35,428 nucleotides of DNA from an uncultured Gammaproteobacteria bacterium (GCA_964626355.1 CAZVCF010000002.1:7184-42611), one strand, 5' to 3'; numbered from the stretch's first letter, positions 1,790-34,035 are shown. Numbers and translations: made by a program. The notes: generated by a model not told the origin, from the letters alone.

Positions 1790-2923
1790 TTATACAAAAA
1801 TTCTCGGCAGGTGATTCGCGATGCGCGTTGTAATCTCATAATTGATCGTACCGACTTTACGCGCTATATCCTCCGCGGCTATTTCTTTATTTTTTTGCAT
1901 TCCGAGAAGAACAGCTTCGTCTCCTTCTTTACATTCATCATCAACTTCCGCCATGCACATATTCATACACACTCGTCCGCGAATCGAATAACTCTTTCCG
2001 CGAACAAGAACCTCACCGCAATTTGATAGTTTCCGATCATAGCCGTCATAATAACCAATCGGCAAAACCGCTATTCTCGCCTCTCGATGCGCTTGATACG
2101 TCAAATCATATCCGATATACGATCCTTTTGGAATCGTTTTTATCTGTATTATTTTCGTTTTCCACGCAAGCACTGGCTGTAAACGAATCGCCAATTTTTT
2201 GTGTTCAGCATATTGTCGCGTTTCAAGAGATGGCCACATTCCGTAAAGTCCGATCCCCAGACGAACCATCGTATGATGCGTTGACGGATTCATTATCGTT
2301 GATGCAGTGCACGCCGCGTGCGTATAACGAGGCATGATCTTGCATCCTCGCAAAAGAGCGACTGCTTTAATAAAACGATCGTTTTGAATGTTGGTATACG
2401 ATTGATCAATTGATTCAGAATTTGCGAAGTGCGTGAACACTCCTTTTATAACGATATTTTTCGCGCGCGCGACCGTGTCGCACGCGTCAGCGAGCTGATG
2501 AAATAAAATACCCACGCGCGAGGTTCCGGTGTCAATTTTTAGATGCGCGTTAATCGGTGTTTTAAGCGAAGATAAAAATCGCATTTGTTCAAAAGTGTAT
2601 ACCGGCAATTCAATCTTATTTTTCACCGCCCAAAACACTTTCTGTTTATCGTTTTGCCAATAACTCAATACGGATATCGGGATATCTTTAATTGACCGGC
2701 GAGCTTCGATCGCCTCATCAAGCGACGCAACGCCAAGATACTCGGCGCCGGCTTTTTTAAAAATTTTTCCGCATTCAATCATTCCGTGCCCGTACGCATT
2801 GCTTTTTATCACCGCCATTATCGCCACTTTTTTATCAACCAATTTTCGAAAAGAAAAAAAATTCGCGCGCACCGCCGCGCGATTGATTTCAATCCATGAT
2901 AAATGATCGACCGCGCCGCTCAT
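1790..2923 (-). CDS. alr: Alanine racemase
   Basis: 377-aa ORF with the PLP-lysine motif AVIKSNAYGHG near the N-terminus and full-length alanine-racemase-like layout (..PIGYYDGYDR.., ..YEITTRI..). Confidence 0.9.
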   Translation of the reverse strand: MSGAVDHLSWIEINRAAVRANFFSFRKLVDKKVAIMAVIKSNAYGHGMIECGKIFKKAGAEYLGVASLDEAIEARRSIKDIPISVLSYWQNDKQKVFWAVKNKIELPVYTFEQMRFLSSLKTPINAHLKIDTGTSRVGILFHQLADACDTVARAKNIVIKGVFTHFANSESIDQSYTNIQNDRFIKAVALLRGCKIMPRYTHAACTASTIMNPSTHHTMVRLGIGLYGMWPSLETRQYAEHKKLAIRLQPVLAWKTKIIQIKTIPKGSYIGYDLTYQAHREARIAVLPIGYYDGYDRKLSNCGEVLVRGKSYSIRGRVCMNMCMAEVDDECKEGDEAVLLGMQKNKEIAAEDIARKVGTINYEITTRIANHLPRIFV

Positions 2924-2981
2924 AGCGAAAAACTAATAGTGAAGGATGAACGTATCAAATTACAAACATCTGATTCTAAAC

Positions 2982-3136
2982 AAATCCGAAATCCGAAACA
3001 CGAAATCCGAAACAAATTCAAATGTTCAAAATCCAAAATTAAAAACAAAAATAAAATTCGGTTCCAAAATTGTTTTGGTCATTAGAATTTTGAATTTAGA
3101 TATTGTTTCGGATTTCGTGCTTCGAATTTCGGATTT
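2982..3136. repeat. Inverted repeat: 34-nt arms (2982..3015 / 3103..3136) around an 87-nt spacer containing the core TTTTGGTCATTAGAATTTTG
   Basis: AAATCCGAAATCCGAAACACGAAATCCGAAACAA versus rc of TTGTTTCGGATTTCGTGCTTCGAATTTCGGATTT: 32 of 34 match. Both mismatches are G-U compatible on the minus (transcribed) strand. Lies between the ctpA stop and the alr start. Confidence 0.75.
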
Positions 3137-4353
3137 TATTTGAGTAATTCTATCGCCTTATCCAACTGCGGATCTTTTTTGTTTTTGTAATCTTCTTCGG
3201 TCATCTTAACCTCTTTATCCGGCTTGATTCCTTCTTTATCAATCAAACGCCCAAGCGGCGTGTACCAATGCGCCACTGTTACTTTAAGCGCTGATCCGTC
3301 AAGAAATGAATTCATCTCTTGCACCGAACCCTTGCCGAATGTTTTTTCTCCAACAAGCGTTGCCAACTTATAATCCTGTAACGCGCCGCCGAGAATTTCA
3401 GACGCGGACGCGGAACCTTGATTCACCAAAACAACCGTTTTAACTTTTTCAAGCTGCCCTTTTCCCTCGCCTTCAGCAACATAATTTGTCTCGTTAAAGC
3501 TCTCGCGCCCTTTTGAAATAACGCTTATCTTCTCCGGAGCCCAAAAACTAATCATTTCAGACGCAACCTCTAAAAATCCTCCCGGGTTATTGCGTAAGTC
3601 AAGAACCAACCCTTTATATTTTTTTGCGTGAAACGCGTTGACCGCCGATTGAAAATTTTCAATCGTATCACTGCCAAAACTTGACAGTCTCACGTAAAAA
3701 ATATCGCCGTTATTTTTTTCTTCCCATTCAACTGACTTAACGACAATCGTATCGCGGACGATTGGAAAATCTTTCGCTATCGACCATCCGTCGCGATAAA
3801 TGGAAAGAGTCACGGTTTCGCCTTTCGGGCCGCGAATGCGCGATACCGCGTCTTCAATAACCATTCCCATTGTTGAGGTTCCGTTGATCGCGATAATTTT
3901 ATCGCCTGCCAACAATCCCGCTTTGTCCGCCGGCGTTCCTTTGAGCGGCGCGATCACGGTTAATTGGTCATTGCGCATACCGATCTCAATGCCGATTCCT
4001 CCAAAACTGCCGTTCAGATCTTCGCTAAATTTTTTTGCGAGCGACGGCTTTAAAAAAACCGTGTACGGATCTTTCACACCGGACGCGATTCCTGTAAGCG
4101 AACCGTAAAATAATTCCTTGTCGTCAATGGTATCGCTCCCGATATAATTATTCCGTATCATGTCGTACACCTGTTTGTAAAGCGAAAAATCAAATCCGTC
4201 GGTAAAATTTTTTTCTCCTTTTGAAATAAACGCGTCAATTGATTCAAACTGCGCGCCATCGCGCACGACCACGAATACGCCGACAACCGCGCCGGCAAAA
4301 AATAAAATCACCGCCGCGATTATAACGCCAAAAAATTTAAACGCTTTTTTCAT
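3136..4353 (-). CDS. ctpA: Carboxy-terminal processing protease (S41 peptidase) with PDZ domain
   Basis: 405-aa ORF with an N-terminal membrane anchor (FFGVIIAAVILFFAGAVVGVFVVV), a PDZ segment (GLLAGDKIIAINGTS) and an S41 catalytic region (VVLVNQGSASASEI...KTFGKGSVQ). Confidence 0.85.
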   Translation of the reverse strand: MKKAFKFFGVIIAAVILFFAGAVVGVFVVVRDGAQFESIDAFISKGEKNFTDGFDFSLYKQVYDMIRNNYIGSDTIDDKELFYGSLTGIASGVKDPYTVFLKPSLAKKFSEDLNGSFGGIGIEIGMRNDQLTVIAPLKGTPADKAGLLAGDKIIAINGTSTMGMVIEDAVSRIRGPKGETVTLSIYRDGWSIAKDFPIVRDTIVVKSVEWEEKNNGDIFYVRLSSFGSDTIENFQSAVNAFHAKKYKGLVLDLRNNPGGFLEVASEMISFWAPEKISVISKGRESFNETNYVAEGEGKGQLEKVKTVVLVNQGSASASEILGGALQDYKLATLVGEKTFGKGSVQEMNSFLDGSALKVTVAHWYTPLGRLIDKEGIKPDKEVKMTEEDYKNKKDPQLDKAIELLK

Positions 4354-4368
4354 ACTGTGCTACAAAAA

Positions 4369-4617
4369 TTAACGGTAATGATTAGTGATGTCGATGATCT
4401 CTATTATATCTCTTTTTCTGAAAATAAAAATAACTCGATATTTCTTATCGATCCTAAAGCTCCATAATCGTAAATGTGGTGGTTCTAATAATTCTGTGTT
4501 AAGACTCTTATGAAAGGGATTTCTCTCAAAAAATCTCTTTTGTTTTTCAAACTTCTTCTGTAAAGCGTGCCGCTTAATATATAATTGCAAATCCTTATGA
4601 AGCGGGAGAATATTCAT
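4369..4617 (-). CDS. RelE/ParE-superfamily toxin (putative)
   Basis: 82-aa basic ORF ending ...LWSFRIDKKYRVIFIFRKRDIIEIIDITNHYR, the usual RelE/ParE C-terminal pattern. ATGA overlap with the upstream small ORF. Confidence 0.6.
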   Translation of the reverse strand: MNILPLHKDLQLYIKRHALQKKFEKQKRFFERNPFHKSLNTELLEPPHLRLWSFRIDKKYRVIFIFRKRDIIEIIDITNHYR

Positions 4618-4838
4618 CCGGTAAAATAAGTTGATCGACGAAGCGCCTTGCTAAAATTTTTTATAAACGCCTTTGAATAATATTTTGTCTTTTTTAACTC
4701 TCGCATAATATGCGCGCGATTTCTAGTCGGTGGCGCATCAAAAATATCTTCCGTCAATAATTGGCGAAAATAATCATATTTCAATTTCGCTTCTATTAAT
4801 TCTTGGTATTTTTTTTCGGAAAGCGTGATAGTTGCCAT
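4614..4838 (-). CDS. Putative antitoxin partner of the RelE-like toxin
   Basis: 74-aa ORF directly upstream of the toxin. Its TGA stop overlaps the toxin ATG (ATGA). Family not recognised. Confidence 0.45.
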   Translation of the reverse strand: MATITLSEKKYQELIEAKLKYDYFRQLLTEDIFDAPPTRNRAHIMRELKKTKYYSKAFIKNFSKALRRSTYFTG

Positions 4839-4942
4839 ATATTAAATAGTATAATGACATTCGTTTCTCTGTCAAACAATCATTACTTAAAATTCTCCAA
4901 AAATTCTTCTTTGAATTCATCAAGACATTTTTGCCTTCTTCT

Positions 4943-5278
4943 TTATACCACCTCGTTCATCACCTCATTAACGAATTGCAATGACTGTTCCTTGAACTTC
5001 CCTACTTCTTCTTTAACGACTGCGTCAAAATTCGGTATTTTTGTGGCTAAAAAATTCATAATTTCCTCTGGAGCGCGGTCTTTGCCTTCTCCGGCGGATG
5101 TCAAAAATGCGTCAAATGCGTCTTTGTCGCTTTCGGACATCATATCAAGCGCGCGAATCATAATCGCGCGATATAAAATATCGCCAATTTTCAGTATCAC
5201 TGCTTGCTGTTTTTCCTCTGGTAGCGTATCCAAATGCAACTCTTTAATCAAATTTATCGTTGCTGTTTGTTGATCCAT
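4943..5278 (-). CDS. Small acidic helical hypothetical protein (resembles the DUF5663-type proteins common in CPR genomes; from memory, unverified)
   Basis: 111-aa ORF with ..LHLDTLPEEKQQAVILKIGDILYRAIMIRAL.. and an ATG start. Confidence 0.55.
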   Translation of the reverse strand: MDQQTATINLIKELHLDTLPEEKQQAVILKIGDILYRAIMIRALDMMSESDKDAFDAFLTSAGEGKDRAPEEIMNFLATKIPNFDAVVKEEVGKFKEQSLQFVNEVMNEVV

Positions 5279-5307
5279 ATAAAAAATTAAGGAATAAATT
5301 ATTTATC

Positions 5308-8300
5308 TTAATACCATTCTGGATAATATTCTTTCAATTTAGATTCTTCAACAACACTCTTCAGTCGAGCTTGCCAATCACCATTACTTTCGGGTAACGA
5401 TTCCCCGTAACTTTTTAAATCAGCCCTGATAGAACTCACTAATTTATTTTTATACGCATCAATAAATCCACCTCTCTGCGCTTGTGGAATATCTTTTTCA
5501 ATATCTTCCGCAAAAGAAAAAGTATTATTTTTGAGACTCTCTAATTTCCGCTCTAACATTTCCATACCAATTATTCTATTGACTGTAATCTTATCGTCCT
5601 GTGCTACCAAAAAATAACGTGAACCAACTTTTGTCCATTCATTTAAAACGTTTACTACTTCATTCTCTTTCATCGTAAAACTTTCATTAAGCGTAGTGTC
5701 GTTAAAATGAACCATTTTTGAAAAATGTGATAAATCTAAATCCTTTGGTTTAACTTCCTGTATATTTTCAATTTGCTTTTGTAACGGTTCCGTTACTGCC
5801 GCGCTCGATTGCTTTGTATCTGGCGCGTCAGTCGGTTTTGGAGCCTGCGGTGGCGGTGTTTCAATTGATCCCGATTGTGAGCCAACCGGCGGTGACACAT
5901 ATGTTTTAATATTCTCAACAGCGGATATTTTATTATCAGGCGTAATCTCAAAAGAGCTCTTTCCGGTGTATCTATCTCCTAGCGCGACATGTAAAGCGCC
6001 TTTATCCGACAATGTAATATTTATTTTATCCGGAGATGTGCCATCTATACTGCTATCGTCAAATAAAAATGTCTTATCTCCAACTTGAACCTTCATTCCT
6101 TCAATTTTAACACCGTGATCTTTCATAAATTGTTCAGCGTTTTGAGTAACTGTTGCTTGTTTAATAGAACTATCAAGATTTTTAAATACTTCGGATCGAA
6201 CTGGCGGCAACGCATCTACCGGTTTCGGTGATACTTCCAATCCTGATTTTTGTCCTATTGGTTGTTGTTCAGTCGCTGTCGTCTTTAGTGTATTTGGCTC
6301 TGTCACTGCCGCGACTGGTTTCGGCGATGCTTCTATTGTCACGTCTTGCGGGATAGATTCTGTTGCCGGTTCTATCGGCACTTCGGGTTTGTTAAACTTG
6401 AAGTAAATATCTTCTTGTCCAGCAGGCGTGTTATCAACATCGATAAGTTTTGCATTGCCTGTTCCATCAAACGCGACCCTCACGCCTTCATGCGCAATGC
6501 GCATTTCTCCGCCCGGCGTCAGCCATCCTTCCTTAATCAAAATTTTACCAGTGAGCTCATTAATTTCATTCTTATCCAGCCCGTCGTCAAAATTAATGCC
6601 TTTCAAATCCTCCGGTTTGAGCCCAAATTTTTTAGTGAGTATTTCTGTTAATTGGTCTTTATTAAGTTGCATCTCTTGCGCGTTCAACGCGTTGCGGTTC
6701 ATTTGCGTCAAATATTCAACTTGTCGTTTTACCGCGTGCCATACGCCTTCTCCCTTGCCAACAGTGCCAAGCTTCGCAAGATTCTCAATATTTTGTTTTT
6801 CTATTGGCCGTAATATCTCTTCTCGCGAAGGACCTGTTGGTTCTGGTGGCGGTACGTTGCCTTTACCGCTTTCTGGCTGTGCCACGCCTTTGCCATCGCC
6901 AATCGGAACTTGAATATGGGGCCGTTCAATGCCTAATTTATCAATAAGCGCGTTGCTGTACGCTCCATGAACAAGATATGCTTCGCCGATCATCGCTCCC
7001 GCAACCGCAAGCCCACCGCATAATTTTGCTATGCCGACTCGTTTTTGATATTTTGCTTCATTATCTAAAATAGCATCATATCCTGATTGTTTAGCACGTA
7101 AAAATATTTCTACTTCCTCTTCTTTTAATTCTTTTCCTGTTCCGCGCACTTCCTGCCGATATTCTTCTTTCGCGTGCTCGAGTGTTTTGCCTCCTAAAAT
7201 TTTTTCACGAAACCAAGACGCGTTCGCAATTTTGCCAATTCCGCCGCTTACCCCGAGGACCATTGTTCCAGCCAACGCGGCACGAGCAAGACGATAGGTA
7301 AAATACGCGCCAATTCCAATTCCAGCCATTGCCGTTGGCACAAACATAAACACCGCGCCAGCGCCAAGTCCAGCGGAAATCACCCATCGCACCGGTGGTT
7401 TCATTTTAGTCCATTTTTCCCACAATTTTCCTACAATTCCTTTCTCTTTCGGCGGCCAACTGTCAGTAAATTCTTTTTGAAAAATGTCTTTTTCATTAAC
7501 GATGCATTCTTCAAAAACAAACGCTGTAGCTTCTTCTTGCGATTTTCCTTCTTTTAATTTTTCTTTCACGAACGACTTGCCGTATTCAACATTTGCTTGT
7601 TCATATTTTTGATATACTTCTTGTAATAAGGCTTCATTGCCTGTTTTCCCGCCTACGAGCCTATTTTGCTGTTCATATTCCTTAAATAACTCAAAATATT
7701 TCTTCCGCGCATCATCTCGCGCAGTTTTTACTACTTCTAATAAGGACTCCTTCTTTTCCTCTGGCTTTTCTTCGGGTGGCTTGTCCTTAACCCTTTCCTT
7801 CTCTTCTTGCTCCATATAATCTTTCGCTTCTTTCTCTAATGAAACGATAATACTATTATCCATCTTCTCCAAACGCGCTTCTTGAAGTAATATATCTATA
7901 ATTTTCGCCACTCTCTCGAACGAAGACTCCTTTTTCTCAACACGCTCACGAAGCCCTTCAAGAAATACTTCCAACGCCTCATTATTTTTTAAAACTGCGG
8001 TTATCGTCGCTTTCTTTTTTTCTTCTGTTCTTCGTTTTCTTTCTTCTTCATTTGCTTTATCATCGACCACAATTTTATCATGAGAAGATTCATCTTCCTT
8101 GACTACCTCGTCCGGAAGCGGCAGTTCTACGTTCAGTATTGGCGTTAACGCTTTCTCTAATTTCTCGACTGATGCTGACGTTTCCGCTTTATCTATCTTT
8201 AACACTTCCGCTTTCGCCGTTGATAACGGAGGCGTTTTCTTCTCTGCTAGCGGCGATTCTTTAATTCCCGATGCTATAGATTTATCAACTTCTCCGGTTG

Positions 8301-8832
8301 TCACGGTTTCCACTAGCGTTGGCGATTCTGTTTTTTTCTCTTCTGATTCATCGTCGTCTAAATATAGCTCGCCACTTTGATCATTCAATAAATTAACCTT
8401 TCCCTCTATGGGAGCCGTAGACTTCTTTTCTGAAAACGAAAAAACGTCCACCAAAGTACCAAACATTTGTTTATTGAGATTCACAAAATTTTGCCCGGCA
8501 TTTTTTATCTTTTGCAGTACACTCTCTTCCGATTTTTTGACTGTTTCTATCTCTTGCGGAGTCGCGTCAGCCTTGCTTACGGCGAGATCGCTTCCTTTCT
8601 GAATAGTAATTTCTGCGGCGTTAACAGTTTTTGTAACATTTTCTACTATTTTTTCCGCTTCCGTCTCAACTTTTTTCTCATCCACTCGTGCGCCTTCCGT
8701 CGTTTCCATCTGTTGCGGCAACGGCTCTTCTTTCACTGGCTTATCAGATTCTTCTCGACGCAATTTCGCGTCTTTTTGAAATTGATCGCTCTCTTTTTGC
8801 GCTGCTTTTAATTTTTCATTATCAATTCCCAT
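5308..8832 (-). CDS. Large (1174 aa) hypothetical membrane protein: charged Glu/Lys-rich N-terminal half, central TM cluster, Pro-rich C-terminal half
   Basis: Single uninterrupted ORF. Gly/Ala-rich hydrophobic helices (SAGLGAGAVFMFVPTAMAGIGIGAYF.., LAGTMVLGVSGGIG, LCGGLAVAGAMIGEAYLV). No catalytic motif recognised. Confidence 0.75.
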   Translation of the reverse strand: MGIDNEKLKAAQKESDQFQKDAKLRREESDKPVKEEPLPQQMETTEGARVDEKKVETEAEKIVENVTKTVNAAEITIQKGSDLAVSKADATPQEIETVKKSEESVLQKIKNAGQNFVNLNKQMFGTLVDVFSFSEKKSTAPIEGKVNLLNDQSGELYLDDDESEEKKTESPTLVETVTTGEVDKSIASGIKESPLAEKKTPPLSTAKAEVLKIDKAETSASVEKLEKALTPILNVELPLPDEVVKEDESSHDKIVVDDKANEEERKRRTEEKKKATITAVLKNNEALEVFLEGLRERVEKKESSFERVAKIIDILLQEARLEKMDNSIIVSLEKEAKDYMEQEEKERVKDKPPEEKPEEKKESLLEVVKTARDDARKKYFELFKEYEQQNRLVGGKTGNEALLQEVYQKYEQANVEYGKSFVKEKLKEGKSQEEATAFVFEECIVNEKDIFQKEFTDSWPPKEKGIVGKLWEKWTKMKPPVRWVISAGLGAGAVFMFVPTAMAGIGIGAYFTYRLARAALAGTMVLGVSGGIGKIANASWFREKILGGKTLEHAKEEYRQEVRGTGKELKEEEVEIFLRAKQSGYDAILDNEAKYQKRVGIAKLCGGLAVAGAMIGEAYLVHGAYSNALIDKLGIERPHIQVPIGDGKGVAQPESGKGNVPPPEPTGPSREEILRPIEKQNIENLAKLGTVGKGEGVWHAVKRQVEYLTQMNRNALNAQEMQLNKDQLTEILTKKFGLKPEDLKGINFDDGLDKNEINELTGKILIKEGWLTPGGEMRIAHEGVRVAFDGTGNAKLIDVDNTPAGQEDIYFKFNKPEVPIEPATESIPQDVTIEASPKPVAAVTEPNTLKTTATEQQPIGQKSGLEVSPKPVDALPPVRSEVFKNLDSSIKQATVTQNAEQFMKDHGVKIEGMKVQVGDKTFLFDDSSIDGTSPDKINITLSDKGALHVALGDRYTGKSSFEITPDNKISAVENIKTYVSPPVGSQSGSIETPPPQAPKPTDAPDTKQSSAAVTEPLQKQIENIQEVKPKDLDLSHFSKMVHFNDTTLNESFTMKENEVVNVLNEWTKVGSRYFLVAQDDKITVNRIIGMEMLERKLESLKNNTFSFAEDIEKDIPQAQRGGFIDAYKNKLVSSIRADLKSYGESLPESNGDWQARLKSVVEESKLKEYYPEWY

Positions 8833-9231: not shown

Positions 9232-9290
9232 TAAGAAATAAATTCAATAGAAAACTCTCACTATTTTTCACTTTTGTTTTTTAATTTTAG

Positions 9291-9334
9291 ATTTTGAATT
9301 GTCATTTTGATTTTTGCATTTTGATTTTTGATTT
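9291..9334 (-). repeat. Family A spacer repeat, solo arm
   Basis: ATTTTGAATTGTCATTTTGATTTTTGCATTTTGATTTTTGATTT is the rc of the AAAATCAAAATGCAAAAATCAAAATGACAAT-type consensus. Confidence 0.7.
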
Positions 9335-9533
9335 AACCTTATTATACGCTTCGCGCAAAAAAACAAAATGCTGATATGCACAATTCTATTTTCGCAGAGA
9401 TTTAAAATTTCAGTTTCGGGGGCCAGTTTCAGAGGTCAGACCTCTGAAATCTCAGAAATTTTTGCAATGGCACGCGCGTTTAAATGTTAATATATATTTG
9501 CCTTTGCGTGAAAAAAGAACGATCATCATACTG

Positions 9534-10229
9534 ATGAAAAAACCCTATCTTAAAAAAATCGGCGACGTGTCCATATTCAAAGTATGGCGCGTTGACGGCA
9601 ATTATATCCGCTCAAAAATTGATGAAGAGTTCACTAATTGCGGACAACATTATCTTTTCAAATTTATTCCGAAATACGAACTCTGGATTGATTATGAAGC
9701 GCATCCGGGAGAAACGGACTACTATATCAATCATCTCATTATTGAAAATCGTTTAATGGAAGCCGGAACCGGCTATGGTCAAGCGCTGAATGTTGCGACG
9801 CTTATTGAACAGCGCGAGCGGGATAAAAATCGCGAGATTCAATTATTAAAAAAACGAAATCTTCATCACGTGCCAAAACAAGTGTATATAAAACGGATTA
9901 AATCAAGCACTAAAAATTTCAAAATATGGCTCGTGAATGGAGAGTTAGTCCGCGATCTCTACTATATTAATTTCACTGAAGGAGGTCATGAAAAAGTATA
10001 TTCTTTCGTGCCAAAAGGAGAGGTATGGCTTGACGACGATATCTCGCGAAAAGAAATACAATTCGTTCTGATCCACGAATTGCATGAAAGGTATCACATG
10101 GCTCACGGATTGCCATACTATAAAGCGCATCGCTACGCAAGCGAAGTTGAATACGCGGCGCGAAGGCGTCCAACAACCACACAAAAAAAATTACGTCTTG
10201 AAATAAAGAAAAATGAGGAAATTATATAA
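9534..10229 (+). CDS. Hypothetical protein made of two tandem homologous domains; the second carries IHELHERYHM
   Basis: ORF track starts at TTG 9462. ATG at 9534 (MKKPYLKKIG...) is more plausible. Internal duplication is visible by eye (see findings). Confidence 0.7.
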   Translation: MKKPYLKKIGDVSIFKVWRVDGNYIRSKIDEEFTNCGQHYLFKFIPKYELWIDYEAHPGETDYYINHLIIENRLMEAGTGYGQALNVATLIEQRERDKNREIQLLKKRNLHHVPKQVYIKRIKSSTKNFKIWLVNGELVRDLYYINFTEGGHEKVYSFVPKGEVWLDDDISRKEIQFVLIHELHERYHMAHGLPYYKAHRYASEVEYAARRRPTTTQKKLRLEIKKNEEII

Positions 10230-10296
10230 AAAATGTAAAATGTAAATATCAAAAATCAAAATGACAATGCAAAATTTAAAAATGAATTTAAGAAAA
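10230..10296 (+). repeat. Family A arm plus decayed 5' stub of a four-helix-bundle gene
   Basis: AAAATGTAAAATGTAAATATCAAAAATCAAAATGACAATGCAAAATTTAAAAATGAATTTAAGAAAA. Starts directly after the TAA stop at 10227-10229. Confidence 0.8.
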
Positions 10297-10449
10297 AACC
10301 ATTAATCCAAAACACACAATTTTCCAATTCAATTGTGAACCATCGACCCTGTAATGTCGAACCGTCGAGATAGAACAAACGGAAACAAATCTTAAACCTA
10401 AGATTCAAAATTGGAAATTAAATCTCTGAGTCACTTCGAAATTATAAAA

Positions 10450-10488
10450 TTTTTGCATTTTACATTGTCATTTTGATTTTTGATTTTT
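10450..10488 (-). repeat. Family A arm, inverted partner of 10230..10296
   Basis: TTTTTGCATTTTACATTGTCATTTTGATTTTTGATTTTT. Its rc contains ATCAAAAATCAAAATGACAATG, identical to the left arm. Confidence 0.8.
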
Positions 10489-10583
10489 AAACTTTTAATT
10501 TGAACTTTATTACGCACTGCGGTCGGCCGGTGTTCTCTATAAAATAAATCTATCTTAAAAAATTTTATACTTAAAACTAAATC

Positions 10584-11963
10584 ATGAAAAAATTACTTAT
10601 CGTAGTGGTGTGCGTGTCGTTTATAGCGCCGTGGGGCGCGATCGCGAACGCGCAGTTTGGTCCGCCGCCCGGAGGCGATTTTGGCTCCGGAGGTCCTGGA
10701 AGTATGATGAGTCCGCCGTCGGGTGGCAGTTTCGGCCCGCCTAGCGGAGGTCAAATGATGGGACCTGGAGGACAAGGAGGATTTGGTCCAGGTGGCGGAG
10801 ATACATGCAATATCAATGGAACTGAAGTACCCGGAAAATGCAAAGATCTTGAACAAGGGAAAAACATGATGGGACCTGGCGGTCAGAACGGAGGTCAAGG
10901 AGGATTTGGTTCTGGAGGGCCAGGGGGAGGCCAAATGATGGGTCCGGGCGGTCCGGAAGGCAATATGCCCGACGAAGCTCAAATGGAAGAAATGCAAAAA
11001 AAACAAATGAAAATGCAATTAACTGGAATGTTAAGAGGAATCAAACAAGGAATGAAAGGAATGGGGCAAGGAATGAAAATGATGAAATCGGCGCTTGTTA
11101 AATTAGAAAAACAAGGAATAGCAACGCCTACAGAATTAAAAGAAGCATTAGCAAAAGCTGACGAAATGATTGCGTACATAAACGGAATAAAATCAGCGGA
11201 TGATATCGCTGATCAAGATGCGTTTATGGACAAGATGAGCGATATGCGCGATGTTGGAGACGTAATGCAAGAATGGGGTCCAAAAATCGGAGACCTTTTT
11301 CGTATCGCGTCAATGATAAAAGAAGCTGATCGAAGAATGAAACAAATTGATAAAGATGTGAAACGCGCAAAAGCGCAGGCGGCGAAATCAAAAGTTGACC
11401 TGTCCGATATTATTGCCGAACTGGATAATAAGGTAAATGCGTCTCGCGAAGCGTTTAACGCGGCAAAATCAGCGACGGATGTGGATGAAAAACAAACATC
11501 TCTTGAAGCATTTTTTGAAAGTATGCAAGACATTTACGACACCATACGAGTTATTGATAGCATGAAAAATCTTACGAAAGCAAAAACAGATTGGGCGCGA
11601 CAAATCAAATTAAACGATCAAGTGATCAAACAACTTCAGCGAAAAAAACTTGATGTTGAAGAACTACTGTCAACTCAAAGCGAATTGAAAACGAAATATA
11701 ACGAATTGGTCGCGACGCTCGCGCAAAAACCGATTGATCAAGACGCGATCGTTGATCTTCTTGAAGAAGGAAAAACACTTCAGGCGCAATTCATTGACGC
11801 GAAAGATCAGCTACTCGGGCAAGAATCAGAAATTCCGCAACTCCAATACGAAAAATTCAGCGGACCAAAAATGGATTTTGGCGCATTTCAACAATTCAAG
11901 AAAACGCCAGCAGCAGCTGAAAGTGACAACGGTGGAGAAGGAGGAGAAAATATAGAAGAATAA
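10584..11963 (+). CDS. Secreted hypothetical protein: signal peptide, Gly/Pro/Met-rich low-complexity region, long helical C-terminal region
   Basis: MKKLLIVVVCVSFIAPWGAIANAQ signal-like N-terminus. Repeated GGQMMGPGG / GGFG(P/S)GG units. Lys/Glu/Asp-rich helical remainder. Confidence 0.8.
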   Translation: MKKLLIVVVCVSFIAPWGAIANAQFGPPPGGDFGSGGPGSMMSPPSGGSFGPPSGGQMMGPGGQGGFGPGGGDTCNINGTEVPGKCKDLEQGKNMMGPGGQNGGQGGFGSGGPGGGQMMGPGGPEGNMPDEAQMEEMQKKQMKMQLTGMLRGIKQGMKGMGQGMKMMKSALVKLEKQGIATPTELKEALAKADEMIAYINGIKSADDIADQDAFMDKMSDMRDVGDVMQEWGPKIGDLFRIASMIKEADRRMKQIDKDVKRAKAQAAKSKVDLSDIIAELDNKVNASREAFNAAKSATDVDEKQTSLEAFFESMQDIYDTIRVIDSMKNLTKAKTDWARQIKLNDQVIKQLQRKKLDVEELLSTQSELKTKYNELVATLAQKPIDQDAIVDLLEEGKTLQAQFIDAKDQLLGQESEIPQLQYEKFSGPKMDFGAFQQFKKTPAAAESDNGGEGGENIEE

Positions 11964-12192: not shown

Positions 12193-12756
12193 ATGCTTAC
12201 GATTGGAGAAAAAATACCTGATATGTCGTTCAAGGCATATCACAACGGACGAGCGAAAGACATCAAACTGTCTGATTACAAAGGAAAATGGCTTGTACTA
12301 ATTTTTTATCCGGCAGATTTTACGTTTATTTGTCCGACAGAGCTTGAAGAAGCGGCAGAACTTTATTCGGAATTTAAAAAATGTGGCGCGGAAATTATGA
12401 GCGTGAGCGCTGATACCGTGTTTGTCCATAAAGCATGGCACGACGCATCGCCGTCAATTAAAAAAATAAAATACCCGATGGCAGCGGATCCGACGGGAAA
12501 ATTATGCAGACTATTCGGAACCTATATAGAAGACGAGGGACTCTCTTTGCGCGGCAGTTTTATTATTGATCCGGATGGCGCGCTCAAAGCGTACGAACTA
12601 CACGATAATAGCATTGGCAGAAACACAAAAGAAATTTTGCGCAAACTCAAAGCGGCAAAATTTGTGCGCGAAAATGACGGCCTGGTATGTCCCGCGAATT
12701 GGGAACCGGGCAAAAAAACGCTCAAACCGGGACTGGATTTAGTCGGAAAAATATAA
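12193..12756 (+). CDS. Typical 2-Cys peroxiredoxin (AhpC/TSA family)
   Basis: 187-aa ORF. Peroxidatic-Cys motif FYPADFTFICPTELEE and resolving-Cys motif GLVCPANW. Confidence 0.9.
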   Translation: MLTIGEKIPDMSFKAYHNGRAKDIKLSDYKGKWLVLIFYPADFTFICPTELEEAAELYSEFKKCGAEIMSVSADTVFVHKAWHDASPSIKKIKYPMAADPTGKLCRLFGTYIEDEGLSLRGSFIIDPDGALKAYELHDNSIGRNTKEILRKLKAAKFVRENDGLVCPANWEPGKKTLKPGLDLVGKI

Positions 12757-12795
12757 ATAGGGAATTAGCTTTTAGGGAATTAGGAAATTAGAGAT
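12757..12795 (+). repeat. Family B spacer repeat abutting the peroxiredoxin stop codon
   Basis: ATAGGGAATTAGCTTTTAGGGAATTAGGAAATTAGAGAT begins at the nucleotide after TAA. Confidence 0.75.
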
Positions 12796-12825
12796 AAAAA
12801 AACAAAAAATTAATACGTTAGCTCG

Positions 12826-13451: not shown

Positions 13452-13485
13452 GTTTTTAGGAAATTAGGGGATTAGGAAATTAGAA
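13452..13485 (+). repeat. Family B spacer repeat abutting the SOD stop codon
   Basis: GTTTTTAGGAAATTAGGGGATTAGGAAATTAGAA. Confidence 0.75.
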
Positions 13486-13502
13486 AAACCATAAAAAAAG
13501 AT

Positions 13503-13542
13503 AAAACCCTGTATTTTTGCTTTGCAAAAATACAGGGTTTTT
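13503..13542. terminator. Bidirectional hairpin terminator between convergent SOD and lipoprotein genes
   Basis: AAAACCCTGTATTTTTGC-TT-GCAAAAATACAGGGTTTT with A/T runs on both sides. Confidence 0.7.
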
Positions 13543-14034: not shown

Positions 14035-14151
14035 TTTTTCTCCTTGATTATTTCATTTATAAGAACCATACTTAATATAGAGAATATCTTGTTCCTTGTC
14101 AACCCACTGCACTGATCTTTACAAATTCCAAATTACAAGCACCAACATTAT

Positions 14152-14326
14152 AAATCACAAATTACAAGCACCAAATTACAAACCAATCCAAAACACAAAG
14201 CACAATATCCCCGCCTGTGCCGAGGCTTCGGCGGGCAGGCAAAACAAATGATAAATAAATTCAAAACAGTTTAGTATTTTGGTCATTGAAATTTGTTTGT
14301 AATTTGGAATTTGTAATTTGTGATTT
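14152..14326. repeat. Inverted repeat: 32-nt arms (14152..14183 / 14295..14326) around a 111-nt spacer holding a GC hairpin (14213..14240) and the core TTTTGGTCATTGAAATTTG
   Basis: AAATCACAAATTACAAGCACCAAATTACAAAC versus rc of the right arm AAATCACAAATTACAAATTCCAAATTACAAAC: 29 of 32 match. An extra direct copy of the arm words lies at 14121..14149. Confidence 0.7.
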
Positions 14327-14370
14327 TCGCTACTAACTACTTAGGATTTTCGCTATTCACTATTAGTTAT

Positions 14371-14416
14371 TTATTCCTAACCCCCTAATTTCCTAATAAG
14401 CTAATTTCCTATCCCT
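14371..14416 (-). repeat. Family B repeat (inverted orientation) ending exactly at the ATP-grasp ATG
   Basis: TTATTCCTAACCCCCTAATTTCCTAATAAGCTAATTTCCTATCCCT followed by ATG at 14417. Confidence 0.8.
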
Positions 14417-15280
14417 ATGACCATCGGCTATATTTTCGCCAATATTAAATTTTTTCCGGAAGATAAGATATTTTTTAATTTGGCGAAAGAAAAAAATATA
14501 AAAATCATTCTCTTCCCTTCCGCGCGCGTACTACCGGAAATCACTATAAAAAAACTCGCGAAAAAATGCGATGTAGTGATCAATAATTCAGCCGAGTCTG
14601 AAGCGTATGAAATCGCAAAAATTATTGAAATGGCGGGTATACCGGTCGTTGACCCGACTTCATCTCTTTATTATTTTGAAAATAAATGGCTTTTTTACAT
14701 ACTCTGCAAAAATAATGGCATTCCGACACCACACACGGTCCTGCTTCCAAAAATTCTACGCAACTGTTATCAGCCGATTAAAAGAATACTCCGCAAAAAC
14801 GGCGCGGTTATCATTAAAAATATTATGAGCGATAATGGCCAATTCGTTGATCGCGCAAAAACGCTTCCCGCCGCCATCGCGTGTATTAAAAAATTTCATA
14901 AAGGAGACCGCGCGCCGCTCATTGCGCAGGAATATATCAAACAATCGCACAAAGTATATCGCACGCTCGTAATCGGCAATAAGGTGGTTCAAGGCGCAAT
15001 CAAAAGTTCAAAACACTGGAAATGCACCGGACGATTTATCAAAGGCGATTGCAAAAAATTTTATGTCACGCCGAAACTCGCCCATCTTTCCGTTAAAATC
15101 GCGCGTCTGACTAAAATTCCGTGGTGTGGTATTGATTTTATGCGAAAAAATAACGAATGGATCGCGATTGAGGCGAACTCAAGCCCGGGAATGGATTTTA
15201 TAGAAAATGATATTCCAATCGTCTACAAATATCTGCTCAACTATCTCATCACGATGTACGAAAAGTGGTGGAAAATATAG
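14417..15280 (+). CDS. ATP-grasp family ligase (RimK-like)
   Basis: 287-aa ORF with ATP-grasp layout: ..GAVIIKNIMSDNGQFV.., ..PLIAQEYIKQSHKVYRTLVIGNKVV.., ..WCGIDFMRKNNEWIAIEANSSPGMDF. Confidence 0.7.
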   Translation: MTIGYIFANIKFFPEDKIFFNLAKEKNIKIILFPSARVLPEITIKKLAKKCDVVINNSAESEAYEIAKIIEMAGIPVVDPTSSLYYFENKWLFYILCKNNGIPTPHTVLLPKILRNCYQPIKRILRKNGAVIIKNIMSDNGQFVDRAKTLPAAIACIKKFHKGDRAPLIAQEYIKQSHKVYRTLVIGNKVVQGAIKSSKHWKCTGRFIKGDCKKFYVTPKLAHLSVKIARLTKIPWCGIDFMRKNNEWIAIEANSSPGMDFIENDIPIVYKYLLNYLITMYEKWWKI

Positions 15281-15322
15281 GATAGCTTCTTAGCTTATAG
15301 GGGATTAGGAAATTAGGAATAA
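15281..15322 (+). repeat. Family B repeat starting exactly after the ATP-grasp stop; inverted partner of 14371..14416
   Basis: GATAGCTTCTTAGCTTATAGGGGATTAGGAAATTAGGAATAA. Its rc begins TTATTCCTAA and ends CTATC, like the 5' copy. Confidence 0.8.
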
Positions 15323-15340
15323 AAAAAGCTTTATTAAAAA

Positions 15341-15972: not shown

Positions 15973-16120
15973 AGAACGATCTCCTTTCTTTCTTCTTTTT
16001 CCTTTTTTCTCTATTTCATTATCTGATACCGCGAGACATCATACGCTAATAATAACGCATACTCTTGTTCTTGTCAATAATAGTATAATGCCATAGAGTT
16101 CTTGACCACGGAATCGCTGT

Positions 16121-16170
16121 AATGAAAAATGTAAATATCAAAGTGAAAAATGGCAATCTAAAATGGTAAA
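16121..16170 (+). repeat. Family A arm at the 3' side of four-helix-bundle gene 1
   Basis: AATGAAAAATGTAAATATCAAAGTGAAAAATGGCAATCTAAAATGGTAAA. Confidence 0.8.
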
Positions 16171-16171
16171 A

Positions 16172-16543
16172 TTATTTTTTGCCTTTTAAAGTGAGAATGC
16201 TGGACGCAAGAACATTGGCGATCTCTATCAATTCTTTAAGCAACCATCCTAACTCAATACGATCACCCTTATTGGTATCTCGCAATAAGGTTATCCACAT
16301 CTTAGATTCGTTCGATGATTTCAAAGCATGAGTAAAAAAGTTGATAAAGTCCTTTTTGGAACTTGCCGAATTGGCTTCAATATAATTAGCAAGAATACTT
16401 GTGCCACTTCTTAAAAGCTGTTTCCCGATTACTACGCAAACTGAATCTTTTGGCAATGCATCAATAAATTTTATCAGCCGAAGGACCCAATAATAAAGTC
16501 TTTTCTTGAATTCATTTTTAAATTTTGCATTGTCATTTTGCAT
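16172..16543 (-). CDS. Four-helix-bundle protein (23S rRNA intervening-sequence protein family), copy 1
   Basis: 123-aa ORF MQNDNAKFKNEFKKR...GKQLLRSGTSILANYIEANSASSKKDF..., the pattern I recognise for this family. 98 of 123 residues are identical to the ORF at 22032..22403 (hand count). Confidence 0.85.
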   Translation of the reverse strand: MQNDNAKFKNEFKKRLYYWVLRLIKFIDALPKDSVCVVIGKQLLRSGTSILANYIEANSASSKKDFINFFTHALKSSNESKMWITLLRDTNKGDRIELGWLLKELIEIANVLASSILTLKGKK

Positions 16544-16565
16544 TTTGATTTTTACATTTTAATAT
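16521..16565 (-). repeat. Family A arm covering the start of four-helix-bundle gene 1
   Basis: rc reads AAAATGTAAAAATCAAAATGCAAAATGACAATGCAAAATT. Matches 16126..16164 at 33 of 39 ungapped positions (hand alignment). Confidence 0.8.
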
Positions 16566-16571
16566 ATATCC

Positions 16572-18461: not shown

Positions 18462-18467
18462 AAAAAG

Positions 18468-18516
18468 TTAAAAATGCAAAAATCAAAAATCAAAATGACA
18501 ATCTAAAATGCAAAAT
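18468..18516 (+). repeat. Family A solo arm just upstream of the lepA start
   Basis: TTAAAAATGCAAAAATCAAAAATCAAAATGACAATCTAAAATGCAAAAT. Confidence 0.75.
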
Positions 18517-18521
18517 TATTT

Positions 18522-18553
18522 ACATTCTAACATTCTGCAGAATGTTAGAATGT
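18522..18553. repeat. Perfect 32-bp palindrome
   Basis: ACATTCTAACATTCTG|CAGAATGTTAGAATGT, between the GT2 stop and the lepA start. Confidence 0.85.
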
Positions 18554-18617
18554 TCTTGTCTCTTATATCTTTCAACGTTTTTAAATTTTGTTTTGCCTTT
18601 TTGATTTTTAATTTTGA

Positions 18618-19640
18618 TCATTTGAATTTGTTTCGAATTTCGATATTCGAATTTCGAATTTTTTTAATAATATTATATGTTCGCCTAAAATTCAAATTTA
18701 AAAATGTCATTGCGTACAAAATAATTACTTTACATTTATTTAATGAATGAAAATAGCGCATACTTTTTCTAAAATACGCGCGCGCTTGCGCGCGCTTCCC
18801 CATCACCAATGTCGCACCGCCTCGCCAATAGAGTTCATCGCCAACGCGATGCTGCACATTTCGTTCTAACTCTCCTCTTGAGAGAGTAATCATTTTTTTT
18901 ACCTCCTCTGAAAGCGTATCATAAAATCGTATCGCGTATTCCGCGCATCGTTTTTCAACGTCAACAACATTTTTTGTGGTCACTTGTCCTTCCCAAAATC
19001 GCCAATAGCCGCACAACGCAGGCACGAAATAAAATTCGCCTCTTGTTGCAAGTTCAAGCCATGTCGGATAATCAACCAACGGTAATCCAACGCTCTTAAA
19101 TCCTCCTATGTGATCAAGCGCGCTCTTTCGCACCATAACTGTTTGGGAAGGGAGCGTGTTATATTTTAATAAGATATTGAGAATCGCTCCGATGGGCGAA
19201 TTATTCCCCCATTTATCCAAATCCTTGTTCTTCTTCGGAAAAATATCTAAAAGCTCCCCTTTTTCATCAACCGCGCCTGTTTGCCCGTACACGACAATTA
19301 TTTTCTCGTTTTCAAAAAATGGAATCTGTTTCTCCAATTTATCCGAAGGCCAAAAATCATCGCCTTCTAAAATGGCGATGATATCGCCTTTTGCCAATTT
19401 CAACGCTTTATTAAAATTATCCGGAATTTTTTCAACGCCTTGATTTTGCTGATAGATATACGTAATTCGCGCATCGCTATATGATTTCACTATTTCTCCT
19501 GTTTTGTCAGTTGACCCGTCATCAATAATAATCATTTCCCAATTCGCGTAGGTTTGACCGCGTACGCTTTCAACGCACTGCCGAATAAATCGTTCGTGAT
19601 TATAAGTGAGTGTTAATATGGATACAAGAGAACTTGACAT
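18618..19640 (-). CDS. Family 2 glycosyltransferase
   Basis: 340-aa ORF: VSILTLTYNHERFIRQCVESVRGQTYANWEMIIIDDGSTD and ..ILEGDDFW.. (DxD-like). The last ~15 codons are encoded by a CGAAATT-type repeat. TGA stop. Confidence 0.85.
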   Translation of the reverse strand: MSSSLVSILTLTYNHERFIRQCVESVRGQTYANWEMIIIDDGSTDKTGEIVKSYSDARITYIYQQNQGVEKIPDNFNKALKLAKGDIIAILEGDDFWPSDKLEKQIPFFENEKIIVVYGQTGAVDEKGELLDIFPKKNKDLDKWGNNSPIGAILNILLKYNTLPSQTVMVRKSALDHIGGFKSVGLPLVDYPTWLELATRGEFYFVPALCGYWRFWEGQVTTKNVVDVEKRCAEYAIRFYDTLSEEVKKMITLSRGELERNVQHRVGDELYWRGGATLVMGKRAQARAYFRKSMRYFHSLNKCKVIILYAMTFLNLNFRRTYNIIKKIRNSNIEIRNKFK

Positions 19641-20314: not shown

Positions 20315-20354
20315 TGAATAATTAAAATCTAAAGTATAAAATCAAAAATCAATA

Positions 20355-20396
20355 GCCCTGATTTCGCTCGAGCGAAATCAGGGCTTATTTTTTTTC
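20355..20396 (+). terminator. Rho-independent terminator of the 19715..20314 gene
   Basis: GCCCTGATTTCGCTC|GAGCGAAATCAGGGC, a perfect 15-bp stem, followed by TTATTTTTTTT. Confidence 0.8.
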
Positions 20397-20404
20397 CTCA
20401 TCTT

Positions 20405-20863
20405 TATTAAATAATGAAATACCTTATTCTGAACCATTTGCGAAAAAACGAAAAAACGTAGCGTTTTAACCAGAAACGCAACTGTTTGACGAGCGGAGCG
20501 AGGAGTTTTGCATTTCGTATCAGAGCTCAGAATTCAAACCAGGGTCAGATTGAGAAGCTAAAAAATGAGATGATTTCGAGGCGCGACTACGAAAGTGTGC
20601 CCCCAGCGGCACAGTGAGGAGGAGCAACGAAGAAAGCATCTCATTTTTTAGCTTCCCTACTGGGCGGGCGAATTCGGGTTATCTTCTGCGTTGCTCGTCG
20701 CTCACGTACCACACAGGGTACGTATCGCTTCTCACGCCTTGAAGATAACCCGAATTCGCTCCGCTCAATTGACTCTGGTTTGGATTCTGAGCTCCTAAAC
20801 GCGTTGCGTTTTTGAAGTTTTTGGAGCGTTCCGGTTCAGAATAAGGTATTTCGTTATTTAATA
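20405..20863. other. 459-bp GC-richer nested-palindrome element (candidate large structured ncRNA or foldback/MITE-like element)
   Basis: Four nested inverted-repeat pairs: A 20405..20435/20833..20863, B 20523..20554/20764..20794, C 20554..20572/20637..20655, D 20669..20686/20741..20758. Details in findings. Confidence 0.6.
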
Positions 20864-20868
20864 CCCCC

Positions 20869-21975: not shown

Positions 21976-21976
21976 A

Positions 21977-22030
21977 GAAAATGTAAAATGTAAATCTCAA
22001 AATGTAAAATGACAAAGAAAAAATGACAAA
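21977..22030 (+). repeat. Family A arm at the 3' side of four-helix-bundle gene 2
   Basis: GAAAATGTAAAATGTAAATCTCAAAATGTAAAATGACAAAGAAAAAATGACAAA. Starts 2 nt from the GT4 start codon. Confidence 0.8.
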
Positions 22031-22031
22031 A

Positions 22032-22403
22032 TTATCTTTTGCCTTTTAGAGTAAGTATACTTGAAGCAATGACATTCGCTATTTCAATCACTTCCTGCAA
22101 TAACCAACGCAATTCGTCTTGATTGCCCTTTTTCAGTTCTTTTAAAAGAGTAATCCAAACTTTTGATTCATTTGCTGATTTGAGCGCATGCGTAAAAAAA
22201 TTCGTGAAATCTTTTCGTGAACTTGCGGAATTTGCTTCAATATAATTTGCCAAAATACTTGTACCGCTTCGCAATAATTGTTTACCCATTACCTCACTTA
22301 CCGAATCCTTAGGCAACGCATCAATATATTTAATCAATCGCACAACGAAAGAATATACCCTTTTTTTGAATTCATCTTTAAATTTTGCATTGTCATTTTG
22401 CAT
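22032..22403 (-). CDS. Four-helix-bundle protein (23S rRNA intervening-sequence protein family), copy 2
   Basis: 123-aa ORF MQNDNAKFKDEFKKR...GKQLLRSGTSILANYIEANSASSRKDF.... Paralogue of 16172..16543. Confidence 0.85.
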   Translation of the reverse strand: MQNDNAKFKDEFKKRVYSFVVRLIKYIDALPKDSVSEVMGKQLLRSGTSILANYIEANSASSRKDFTNFFTHALKSANESKVWITLLKELKKGNQDELRWLLQEVIEIANVIASSILTLKGKR

Positions 22404-22425
22404 TTTGATTTTTGCATTTTACATT
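22380..22425 (-). repeat. Family A arm covering the start of four-helix-bundle gene 2
   Basis: rc of 22383..22425 matches 21980..22022 at 37 of 43 ungapped positions (hand alignment). Confidence 0.8.
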
Positions 22426-22480
22426 AACGTTTTAAAAAAATCTATCAACTATAACACATCTGTTTATATTCTGCACTATA

Positions 22481-23427: not shown

Positions 23428-23478
23428 AAATTTTGCATTTTGCATTGTCATTTTGATTTTTGCATTTTGATTTTTGAA
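23428..23478 (-). repeat. Family A solo arm filling the secD-secF spacer
   Basis: AAATTTTGCATTTTGCATTGTCATTTTGATTTTTGCATTTTGATTTTTGAA. Ends 2 nt from the secD stop. Confidence 0.8.
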
Positions 23479-23479
23479 T

Positions 23480-32500: not shown

Positions 32501-32518
32501 AAATGAATAACTATAAAT

Positions 32519-34028: not shown

Positions 34029-34035
34029 AAAAAAT

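Follow-up and report, generated by a model that had tools for sequence, protein, structure and literature searches.

A gene-less unit with inverted arms at an operon junction, and its probable derivation from a four-helix-bundle cassette of Patescibacteria

A 35,428-nt stretch of DNA from an uncultured Gammaproteobacteria bacterium (GCA_964626355.1 CAZVCF010000002.1:7184-42611), analysed at its full length and called the window below, contains at positions 10232-10500 a 269-nt unit with imperfect terminal inverted repeats of about 50 nt and no open reading frame (ORF). Its sequence marks it as very probably an ORF-less member of a family of cassettes that encode a four-helix-bundle (4HB) protein. 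The best overall explanation, which we hold with a little more than even confidence, is that the unit is an ORF-less copy of a cassette of about 450 nt that is common in Patescibacteria, resembles the intervening sequences (IVSs) of rRNA genes and is co-transcribed with its host genes.

Anatomy of the intact cassette and of the gene-less unit

The full cassette of about 450 nt consists of a 5' arm, an ORF of 123 amino acids (aa) and a 3' arm. The arms are imperfect, inverted, about 45-55 nt long and built of degenerate heptamer repeats; the ORF begins inside the 5' arm, to which its start codon and ~7 initial codons belong. Cassette ORFs match PF05635 (23S_rRNA_IVP) and TIGR02436 ('four helix bundle protein'), the S23p family, whose function is undefined so far (PMC4990558). 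The window contains two intact cassettes, both on the minus strand: one at 16117-16569, directly downstream of lepA, with both arms and a PF05635 ORF at 16172-16543, and one at 21976-22429 (ORF 22032-22403), flanked by secF and a gene for a GT1 glycosyltransferase. More than 4000 homologues of the 4HB protein were retrieved, and the most similar ones, at 82-89% identity, come from Doudna-, Wolfe-, Harrison-, Terry-, Yanofsky- and Moranbacteria. The nearest solved relative of the protein is 2RLD, an entry with five chains.

A scan of reference genomes retrieved 79 loci with 84 non-redundant cassettes from diverse Patescibacteria lineages. In all cassettes conservation starts 22 nt before the start codon (AATGTAAAATGTAAATATCAAA followed by ATG) and ends 22 nt past the last TTTGAT (...TTTGATATTTACATTTTACATT), the terminal 22-mer at one end being the exact reverse complement of that at the other. 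One 4HB ORF occurs per 9.9 kb of the contigs that bear cassettes. The sequence-only reading had allowed for the arms being ubiquitous simple sequence; this is contradicted by 271 kb of independently sampled Patescibacteria loci, which contain neither a PF05635 ORF nor an arm of the type borne by these cassettes (class A). One cassette (locus L074, 9972-10425) has an in-frame TAG at columns 192-194 of alignment A2, where all others keep a Glu codon, and is probably either a pseudogene or the product of a sequencing error.

The gene-less unit begins 2 nt after the stop codon (TAA, 10227-10229) of a gene for a 231-aa protein without a Pfam match (9534-10229, plus strand). Its left arm (10232-10275, plus strand) is of the 5'-arm type, with degenerate AAAATGN heptamers, and corresponds to columns 5-48 of the cassette alignment. 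Past the arm lies an ORF-derived stub (10276-10298, plus strand) that represents codons ~8-15 of the 4HB gene (...KNEFKKK), followed by an unrelated interior of 148 nt (10299-10446) in place of the ORF body and by a right arm of the 3'-arm type (10447-10500, plus strand) that pairs with the left one. With arm profiles built from foreign cassettes only, window sequences being left out, positions 10233-10292 matched the 5'-arm profile at 41.1 bits (E = 2.5e-10) and positions 10448-10499 the 3'-arm profile at 31.3 bits (E = 2.2e-7); the left arm also aligns to the intact cassettes. Positions 10231-10283 pair with 10449-10501 over 53 nt at 85%, 165 nt apart, and a 278-nt segment comprising the unit folds into one long hairpin (-55.8 kcal/mol, z = -5.7; 0 of 200 shuffles equally stable). 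The inverted arm pair reported from sequence alone is therefore real; it is no isolated feature, the arms belonging to a dispersed family with at least eight sites in the window. Among gene-less units those of 10232-10500 are the best preserved, being complementary at 45 of 50 positions with a perfect run of 22 bp. Their GC content is 0.15, compared with 0.34 in the interior.

Positions 10257-10298 translate to QNDNAKFKNEFKKK, which agrees with the two intact PF05635 genes over residues 2-15, with 13/14 and 12/14 identities (tblastn), and the position of the start codon, 10254-10256, reads AAT instead of the cassette's ATG. A gene stub with a destroyed start codon, as had been proposed, is thus present. 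The proposal that ~13 codons survive as an ORF remnant holds for the match to the 4HB gene start and fails in its extent: because the start codon and the first ~7 codons are part of the 5' arm, the stub is for the most part conserved arm, and only its last ~22 nt (10276-10298) lie outside. Similar stubs occur in the gene-less units of L081, L055, L017 and L066. The AAT at 10254-10256 is the exact state of reverse-complemented canonical 3' arms, the cassette start codon facing a conserved mismatch in the 3' arm; judging from this correspondence, it may have been copied from an arm of the partner type instead of resulting from random decay.

The interior proved as unrelated as had been claimed. 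Neither intact 4HB protein found similarity in 10299-10446 by tblastn, and the best local DNA scores against 30 cassette ORFs (14-16) were at or below those of shuffled controls (17.2 +/- 2.3), so that a residual ORF was rejected; the same segment gave no blastn match in 1.36 Mb of related loci and no Rfam match under a permissive search. This foreign interior is the only trait in which the unit is atypical among gene-less units. In sum, the unit shares with class-A cassettes a 5' arm, an inverted 3' arm and a start at the stop codon of a preceding gene with the same orientation, and of the ORF it retains only residues 2-15, with AAT for ATG and an unrelated interior. Since the intact 123-aa ORF is missing, it is classified as an ORF-less derivative, not as a full member of the cassette family.

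Two other assignments were tried on the unit. A scan of 10230-10583 found no site resembling a Rho-independent terminator, and this function is ruled out by the lack of a GC-rich stem with a T-run in the arms. Membership in a defence system was rejected for want of a PADLOC match.

Placement between operon genes and origin of the gene-less units

Cassettes are co-directional with their upstream neighbour in 78 of 83 cases and with their downstream neighbour in 75 of 83. The upstream stop codon lies within -6 to +6 nt of the cassette start in about 53 of 78 cases, the cassette often supplying the TAA itself, and 0-9 nt separate the 3' edge from the downstream start codon in 35 of 53. The window unit conforms to this arrangement in that both neighbours are on the plus strand and that it starts right after the stop of the 9534 gene; the downstream gene (10584-11963) is co-directional and encodes a 459-aa protein of G/P/M/Q-rich low complexity. 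The cassette therefore fills the whole stop-to-start spacer and leaves no room for a promoter of its own; with an orientation that follows the host genes, the unit would likely be transcribed as part of the host operon. A bridging role in translation, in which zipped arms would place a Shine-Dalgarno (SD) sequence from the end of the upstream gene beside the downstream ATG, was rejected: the last 20 nt before the element score -3.33 kcal/mol compared with -3.42 kcal/mol for coding controls (p = 0.42). The 459-aa protein, which has no Pfam match, has a signal-peptide-like N-terminus and repeats of the type ...GGQGGFGPGG...MMGPGG....

The genes that flank cassettes are diverse, falling into 47 downstream and 46 upstream clusters. 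About 24 of the 79 cassettes, from different lineages, nevertheless lie at junctions of one gene cluster that encodes a PrgI-like membrane protein (MQFQVPQFI...) and a VirB4-like protein (...SSxNFxLKSxDEQxAI...FLNSLDFP); among them are those of L008, L010, L017, L023, L024, L043, L047, L062, L073, L078, L080 and L085. Their recurrence at these junctions suggests either that the cassettes have long resided at conserved positions or that they strongly prefer such sites. No cassette lies next to rRNA in the fetched loci, where the only 16S gene seen is ~7 kb from a cassette (L016), with one further end fragment (L036).

Gene-less units are widespread. In other genomes, profile searches detected about 27 ORF-less arm pairs of 86-141 nt, whose start lies between -11 and +12 nt of the upstream stop codon except in one case (+55); among the 12 that could be oriented, nine are co-oriented with both neighbours. 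Two results argue for loss of the ORF in place. Units in L081 and L008 retain the ATG, from which a mini-ORF of 8-11 codons leads directly into the last codons of the gene, an arrangement that is the signature of an internal deletion. At the junction upstream of the PrgI-like gene, L021, L031, L055 and L068 carry the full cassette and L008 and L015 a gene-less unit; this contrast at one orthologous junction supports ORF loss in situ. We consider it probable that the unit at 10232-10500, too, arose by loss or replacement of an internal ORF. In L008, a 9.6-kb Terrybacteria contig, positions 1826-8417 carry five gene-less class-A units of ~101 nt, 89-99% identical to one another, and one intact cassette, which amounts to nearly one unit per gene junction. 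On the evidence of these sequences, gene-less units are a regular, recurrent and well-preserved form of the family and most probably not neutral remnants.

The class-A arm motif occurs at the window's eight or more sites in intergenic DNA, at two of which it brackets the intact 4HB genes. A gene-less pair lies at 32515-32639, between gatB and a sugar transferase gene, and one arm at 18466-18521, immediately upstream of the lepA start and within a hairpin at 18462-18617. Solo arms are found at 23429-23481 (minus strand, 5'-arm type), right after the secD stop and with a decayed partner, and at 9283-9325 (plus strand), in the divergent spacer upstream of the 9534 gene. A further gene-less unit, at 34032-34198, has its outer arm at 34135-34201 (minus strand), directly after the asnS stop, and its partner arm, identified by inverted-repeat and arm-profile matches, at 34032-34083.

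This last unit accounts for a perfect match noted in the sequence-only reading. Positions 10230-10275 (plus strand) are the exact reverse complement of 34155-34200, and the window contains only these two copies of the 46-mer with up to 3 mismatches allowed, where none is expected by chance. As had been observed, both copies begin at a stop codon: the TAA of the 9534 gene adjoins the first, and that of asnS (34202-34200, minus strand) the second, which takes in its last A. The match widens to 67 nt at 96% (10229-10295 with 34135-34201). The exact 46-mer has no further copy in the 1.36 Mb of related loci; the nearest foreign arm differs by 3 mismatches and most by 6-8, and its closest foreign relatives are 3' arms. 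Exact runs of at least 46 nt occur in only 8 of 1767 between-locus arm pairs (median run 17), and arm identity, 80-95% inside the window, averages 82% between genomes with a 99th percentile of 94%. Recent copying of the gene-less unit, or gene conversion with the arm at 34 kb, was suggested at the outset and is reasonable in view of an identity so far above background; we regard it as probable on these comparisons, which fit duplication of the unit and gene conversion between arms equally. An assembly artefact at the junction of the 9534 gene and the left arm, a concern raised earlier, is countered by an independent short-read assembly: a Logan contig (SRR12113420, locus L001) is 100% identical over 9307-10258. 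It ends 29 nt into the arm, which thus behaves as a dispersed repeat.

Copying of this kind is also what a mobile element would produce. In an explanation modelled on miniature inverted-repeat transposable elements (MITEs), the arms are terminal inverted repeats (TIRs), the 4HB cassette is the 'autonomous' parent, movement is effected by a transposase or by the 4HB protein, and near-identical arms reflect recent transposition of the gene-less form. This would fit the sharp, perfectly inverted termini, the unrelated contexts (47 and 46 neighbour clusters), the several copies per genome with near identity of gene-less copies in L008, the 46-mer shared by the two window sites and the TA dinucleotides that are frequent at both ends of other copies. 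Yet the ORF-bearing copies are ancient, with synonymous sites saturated even between the two window copies (proportion of synonymous differences, pS, 0.84), and the cassettes at PrgI-like/VirB4-like junctions speak for long residence, not hopping. PF05635 is not a known transposase and none is encoded nearby, and a 94% co-orientation with host genes is unexpected of a cut-and-paste element with TIRs. No empty site and no unambiguous target-site duplication was found; the TA could belong to a stop codon or to the palindrome. Viral contigs contain no exact match to the arm core, which likewise led us to reject a phage vector. We consider a mobile element of this kind unlikely.

A neutral, decaying pseudogene remnant, whose arms persist for lack of time and which has no function, would explain the lost ATG, the missing ORF body and the unrelated interior, and it has parallels in the solo arms with decayed partners (9283-9325 and 23429-23481) and in the L074 cassette with its in-frame stop. 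It is at odds with the preservation of the unit's arms, the best of all gene-less units, with the recurrence of such units in many genomes with conserved arms and precise placement, with purifying selection on arms across the family, and with the five copies kept at 89-99% identity in L008. It is the least likely of the explanations considered, and very improbable. The phrase 'emptied or decayed cassette' used in the sequence-only reading is accordingly retained for its first part, an ORF-less derivative of the cassette, and dropped where it implies neutral decay.

Constraint on the arms and their candidate functions

The cassette ORF is under strong constraint. Its ratio of nonsynonymous to synonymous substitution (dN/dS) is ~0.07, with saturated synonymous sites (pS 0.80), and identity at third codon positions is 0.46, compared with 0.80 in the non-coding arms. 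These values indicate that the copies are old, that the protein is functional and that arm sequence is strongly constrained. Conserved parts of the arms are the A/T tracts at 7-nt spacing and the TGACAAT and ATCAAA cores, between which 1-2 nt vary freely. In the correct register 80% of arm cells pair, compared with 38-58% in slid registers.

In RNA, the arms of the unit would form a long AU-rich duplex with 22 perfect bp, by analogy with ORF-bearing rRNA IVSs. Such a duplex would in principle be long enough for RNase III, and processing of the predicted RNA hairpin by this enzyme is possible, if somewhat doubtful.

Several results weigh against the explanation of the unit as an IVS-like, ORF-less cassette copy. 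Compensatory substitutions, expected of a structured RNA, were not found: 3' partners shuffled among cassettes give 80.0 +/- 0.4% pairing (254/500), and the covariation score was matched by 102 of 500 shuffles. Mismatches of the G.U and A.C types are balanced in the arms (92 and 105), with no strand asymmetry. From these two tests it follows that arm sequence, not pairing, is conserved and that nothing shows selection for an RNA helix, a candidate that was therefore rejected. The RNA of a whole intact cassette is no more stable than its shuffles (z = -0.33). Arms of gene-less and ORF-bearing units are equally complementary (83% and 84%, with a median perfect run of 12 in both), which also rules out that arms converge after ORF loss. 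The 148-nt interior of the window unit, which matches nothing searched, is not accounted for by this explanation. In a metagenome scan the best relatives of the 231-aa protein are at most 56% identical and none has class-A arms; neither a filled nor an empty site orthologous to the junction between the 231-aa and 459-aa genes was found in that scan, and exact-protein look-ups for the junction returned one 952-nt contig or nothing. Finally, the other arm classes of the window, described below, have no cognate 4HB gene within it.

An alternative that dispenses with pairing altogether is a host regulatory module in which the arms are outward-directed sigma-70 promoters (TTGTCA, 17 nt, TACATT), their inverted symmetry is incidental and the 3' arm drives the downstream gene as a leaderless or short-leader mRNA. 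A promoter scan found an outward match, TTGTCA-17-TAAACT, in the right arm of the unit at 10465-10493. Both arms of the unit and of an intact cassette match the consensus at 9 of 12 positions with a 17-nt spacer, an outward TTGTCA-17-TACATT match is present in each class-A arm, the hexamers fall on conserved arm columns, and the predicted transcription start, ~7 nt past the -10 hexamer, falls on the element's 3' edge; this would suit the 35 of 53 downstream ATGs that lie 0-9 nt past that edge without an SD sequence. For Correia elements, the creation of promoters at one end or at both has been reported (PMC2649163). Such matches are nevertheless not above chance in AT-rich DNA (9 found, 6.0 +/- 2.7 expected; 7 found, 2.9 +/- 1.8 expected), transcription from the mirror site in the 5' arm would enter the upstream gene in antisense direction, and in the window unit the downstream ATG is 83 nt past the arm. 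The other arm classes (CCCAATG, GAATTAT, CGCTACTAG and others) do not resemble sigma-70 promoters, so that promoter activity cannot be the general function of the arms. We regard this alternative as quite improbable, more so than a mobile element.

The other arm classes belong to divergent relatives of the cassette. Of 21 divergent PF05635 ORFs in fetched DNA, 19 lie between inverted arrays (z > 4) of a short tandem repeat particular to their subfamily, with units such as CCCAATG, AAAATCAC, GAATTAT, TAATTAGGGAATTAG, a CGAAT type and others; arrays such as CCCAATG and TTAGGGAA are non-cognate to class-A arms. Given that arm sequence is conserved without compensatory pairing and that subfamilies have their own repeats, the arms are most likely recognition arrays. 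They would be candidates for recognition by the cognate 4HB oligomer, by a host factor or by both, with binding by the 4HB protein itself a doubtful proposition at present. Intact copies, here those at 16.1-16.6 and 22.0-22.4 kb, would in that case act in trans on the gene-less ones as satellite sites. Conservation of arms without covariation would equally be expected of protein-recognised TIRs and so counts also for the mobile-element alternative.

A more general suggestion, speculative and rather unlikely as yet, is that PF05635 proteins and family-specific heptamer arrays form an unrecognised protein-repeat system at operon junctions, in which a putative pentamer would bind the tandem repeats as RNA or DNA, intact cassettes would supply the protein and gene-less pairs would serve as sites. 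Avd, the accessory protein of diversity-generating retroelements (DGRs), is a homologous small, basic four-helix-bundle protein that is pentameric and binds nucleic acid. We know of no description of DGR Avd genes flanked by inverted heptamer arrays, and neither a reverse transcriptase, of which Pfam scans of all major window ORFs gave no sign, nor a template/variable repeat adjoins the 4HB genes of the window, which sets it apart from a DGR.

The closest known relatives of the cassette are rRNA IVSs. Those of Coxiella and Leptospira contain an S23p ORF, have inverted repeats at their borders and undergo RNase III cleavage within the stem, and the Coxiella S23p ORF has been described as apparently not synthesised in vivo and in reductive evolution (PMC4990558); 23S_rRNA_IVP ORFs have been reported in rRNA insertions of bacteria of the candidate phyla radiation (CPR) (10.1101/2024.02.27.582315). 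Cassettes resemble IVSs in protein family (PF05635/23S_rRNA_IVP), in size class (~430-750 nt), in placing an ORF without a good SD sequence between complementary, stem-forming arms, and in the common occurrence of ORF-less versions; the window unit likewise is bordered by complementary sequences with the stem-loop potential described above. They differ in that they fill stop-to-start operon spacers between protein genes, not rRNA helices (the window gave no Rfam rRNA match and thus no insertion in an rRNA helix), in that their arms are family-specific heptamer arrays with the start codon inside the arm, and in the strong purifying selection on their ORF.

The gene-less units also recall Correia (CREE/NEMIS), ERIC, RUP and BOX elements, which are short (~100-270 nt), bounded by inverted repeats, intergenic, co-transcribed and hairpin-folding; Correia elements, besides the promoters reported at their ends, are reported to be bound or cut by RNase III (PMC2649163). 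Gene-less units share the size, placement, outward promoter-like hexamers and hairpin potential of Correia elements and MITEs, and the window unit has the TIRs, the small size and the lack of a transposase that characterise MITEs. There is no sequence relationship, however; the parent cassette encodes a 4HB protein only and no transposase, the units start precisely at stop codons, mostly co-oriented with their hosts, and their arms are tandem heptamer arrays.

All components have precedents: the S23p/IVS family of proteins, hairpin elements with inverted repeats, and satellites that resemble MITEs. In the literature we found neither a 4HB cassette described together with flanking heptamer arrays or with this location at operon junctions nor a report of MITE-like elements in CPR bacteria, and no account of arms co-diversifying with the protein or of gene-less satellites in Patescibacteria. 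rRNA IVSs carrying PF05635 proteins have been studied since around 1990, and the proteins are abundant and very widespread. If a protein-repeat system were confirmed, it would provide a first functional handle on S23p/IVS proteins and on the persistence and spread of IVS-like elements, and classical ORF-bearing rRNA IVSs would be the same element landed in rRNA. It would have a testable anatomy: a gene always accompanied by two inverted, subfamily-specific arrays of 7-8 nt, extending exactly from stop to start, with repeats conserved far more than synonymous sites and with gene-less pairs populating many operon junctions of the same genomes. It raises the questions of the protein's ligand, of whether the arms are RNase III sites, promoters or binding arrays, and of whether the elements shape the expression of operons in the tiny genomes of Patescibacteria. 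In practical terms, dispersed arms break short-read assemblies, as in the Logan contig, and would explain many odd AT-rich 'hairpin' spacers in CPR genomes.

Other features of the window

Three further hairpin classes of the window, TTAGGGAATTAGG, AATCCGAAATCCGAAAC and CAAATTACAAG (14116-14330), match the arm units of divergent cassettes (L041 4846, L062 6581 and L037 14517). Sites of these classes are located at 1583-1683, 12754-12821, 13456-13505, 15279-15338, 25095-25154, 34008-34049 and 14349-14419, at 2975-3143 and 18587-18666, and at 14116-14330. By this match the hairpins probably represent gene-less descendants of cassettes from sister families. A small GC-rich hairpin is often present in their loops.

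A 554-nt spacer at 20315-20868, between orf199 and the GT1 gene, has a GC content of ~0.43, a predicted folding energy of -258.8 kcal/mol and nested inverted repeats at 20405-20863, with outer arms of 31 nt that are 97% complementary and at least four inner pairs. Its Rfam matches were too weak to be credible (E 0.11-0.88), scored far under the gathering thresholds and did not overlap the nested repeats.

The SecD protein (23480-25093, minus strand) contains a PPIC-type rotamase domain (residues 147-235) between the N-terminal P1 domain (SecD_1st, 75-135) and the P1 head subdomain (265-362). The segment 25253-30297 (minus strand) encodes in a row a fusion of enoyl-CoA hydratase with acyl-CoA dehydrogenase, a 3-hydroxyacyl-CoA dehydrogenase and a thiolase, a beta-oxidation-like set that is unusual for a Patescibacteria-like genome. 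At 4369-4838 (minus strand), a small RelE/YoeB-like toxin ORF with weak Pfam matches overlaps an upstream ORF of 74 aa, and the two likely form a type II toxin-antitoxin pair, as their sequences and arrangement suggest.

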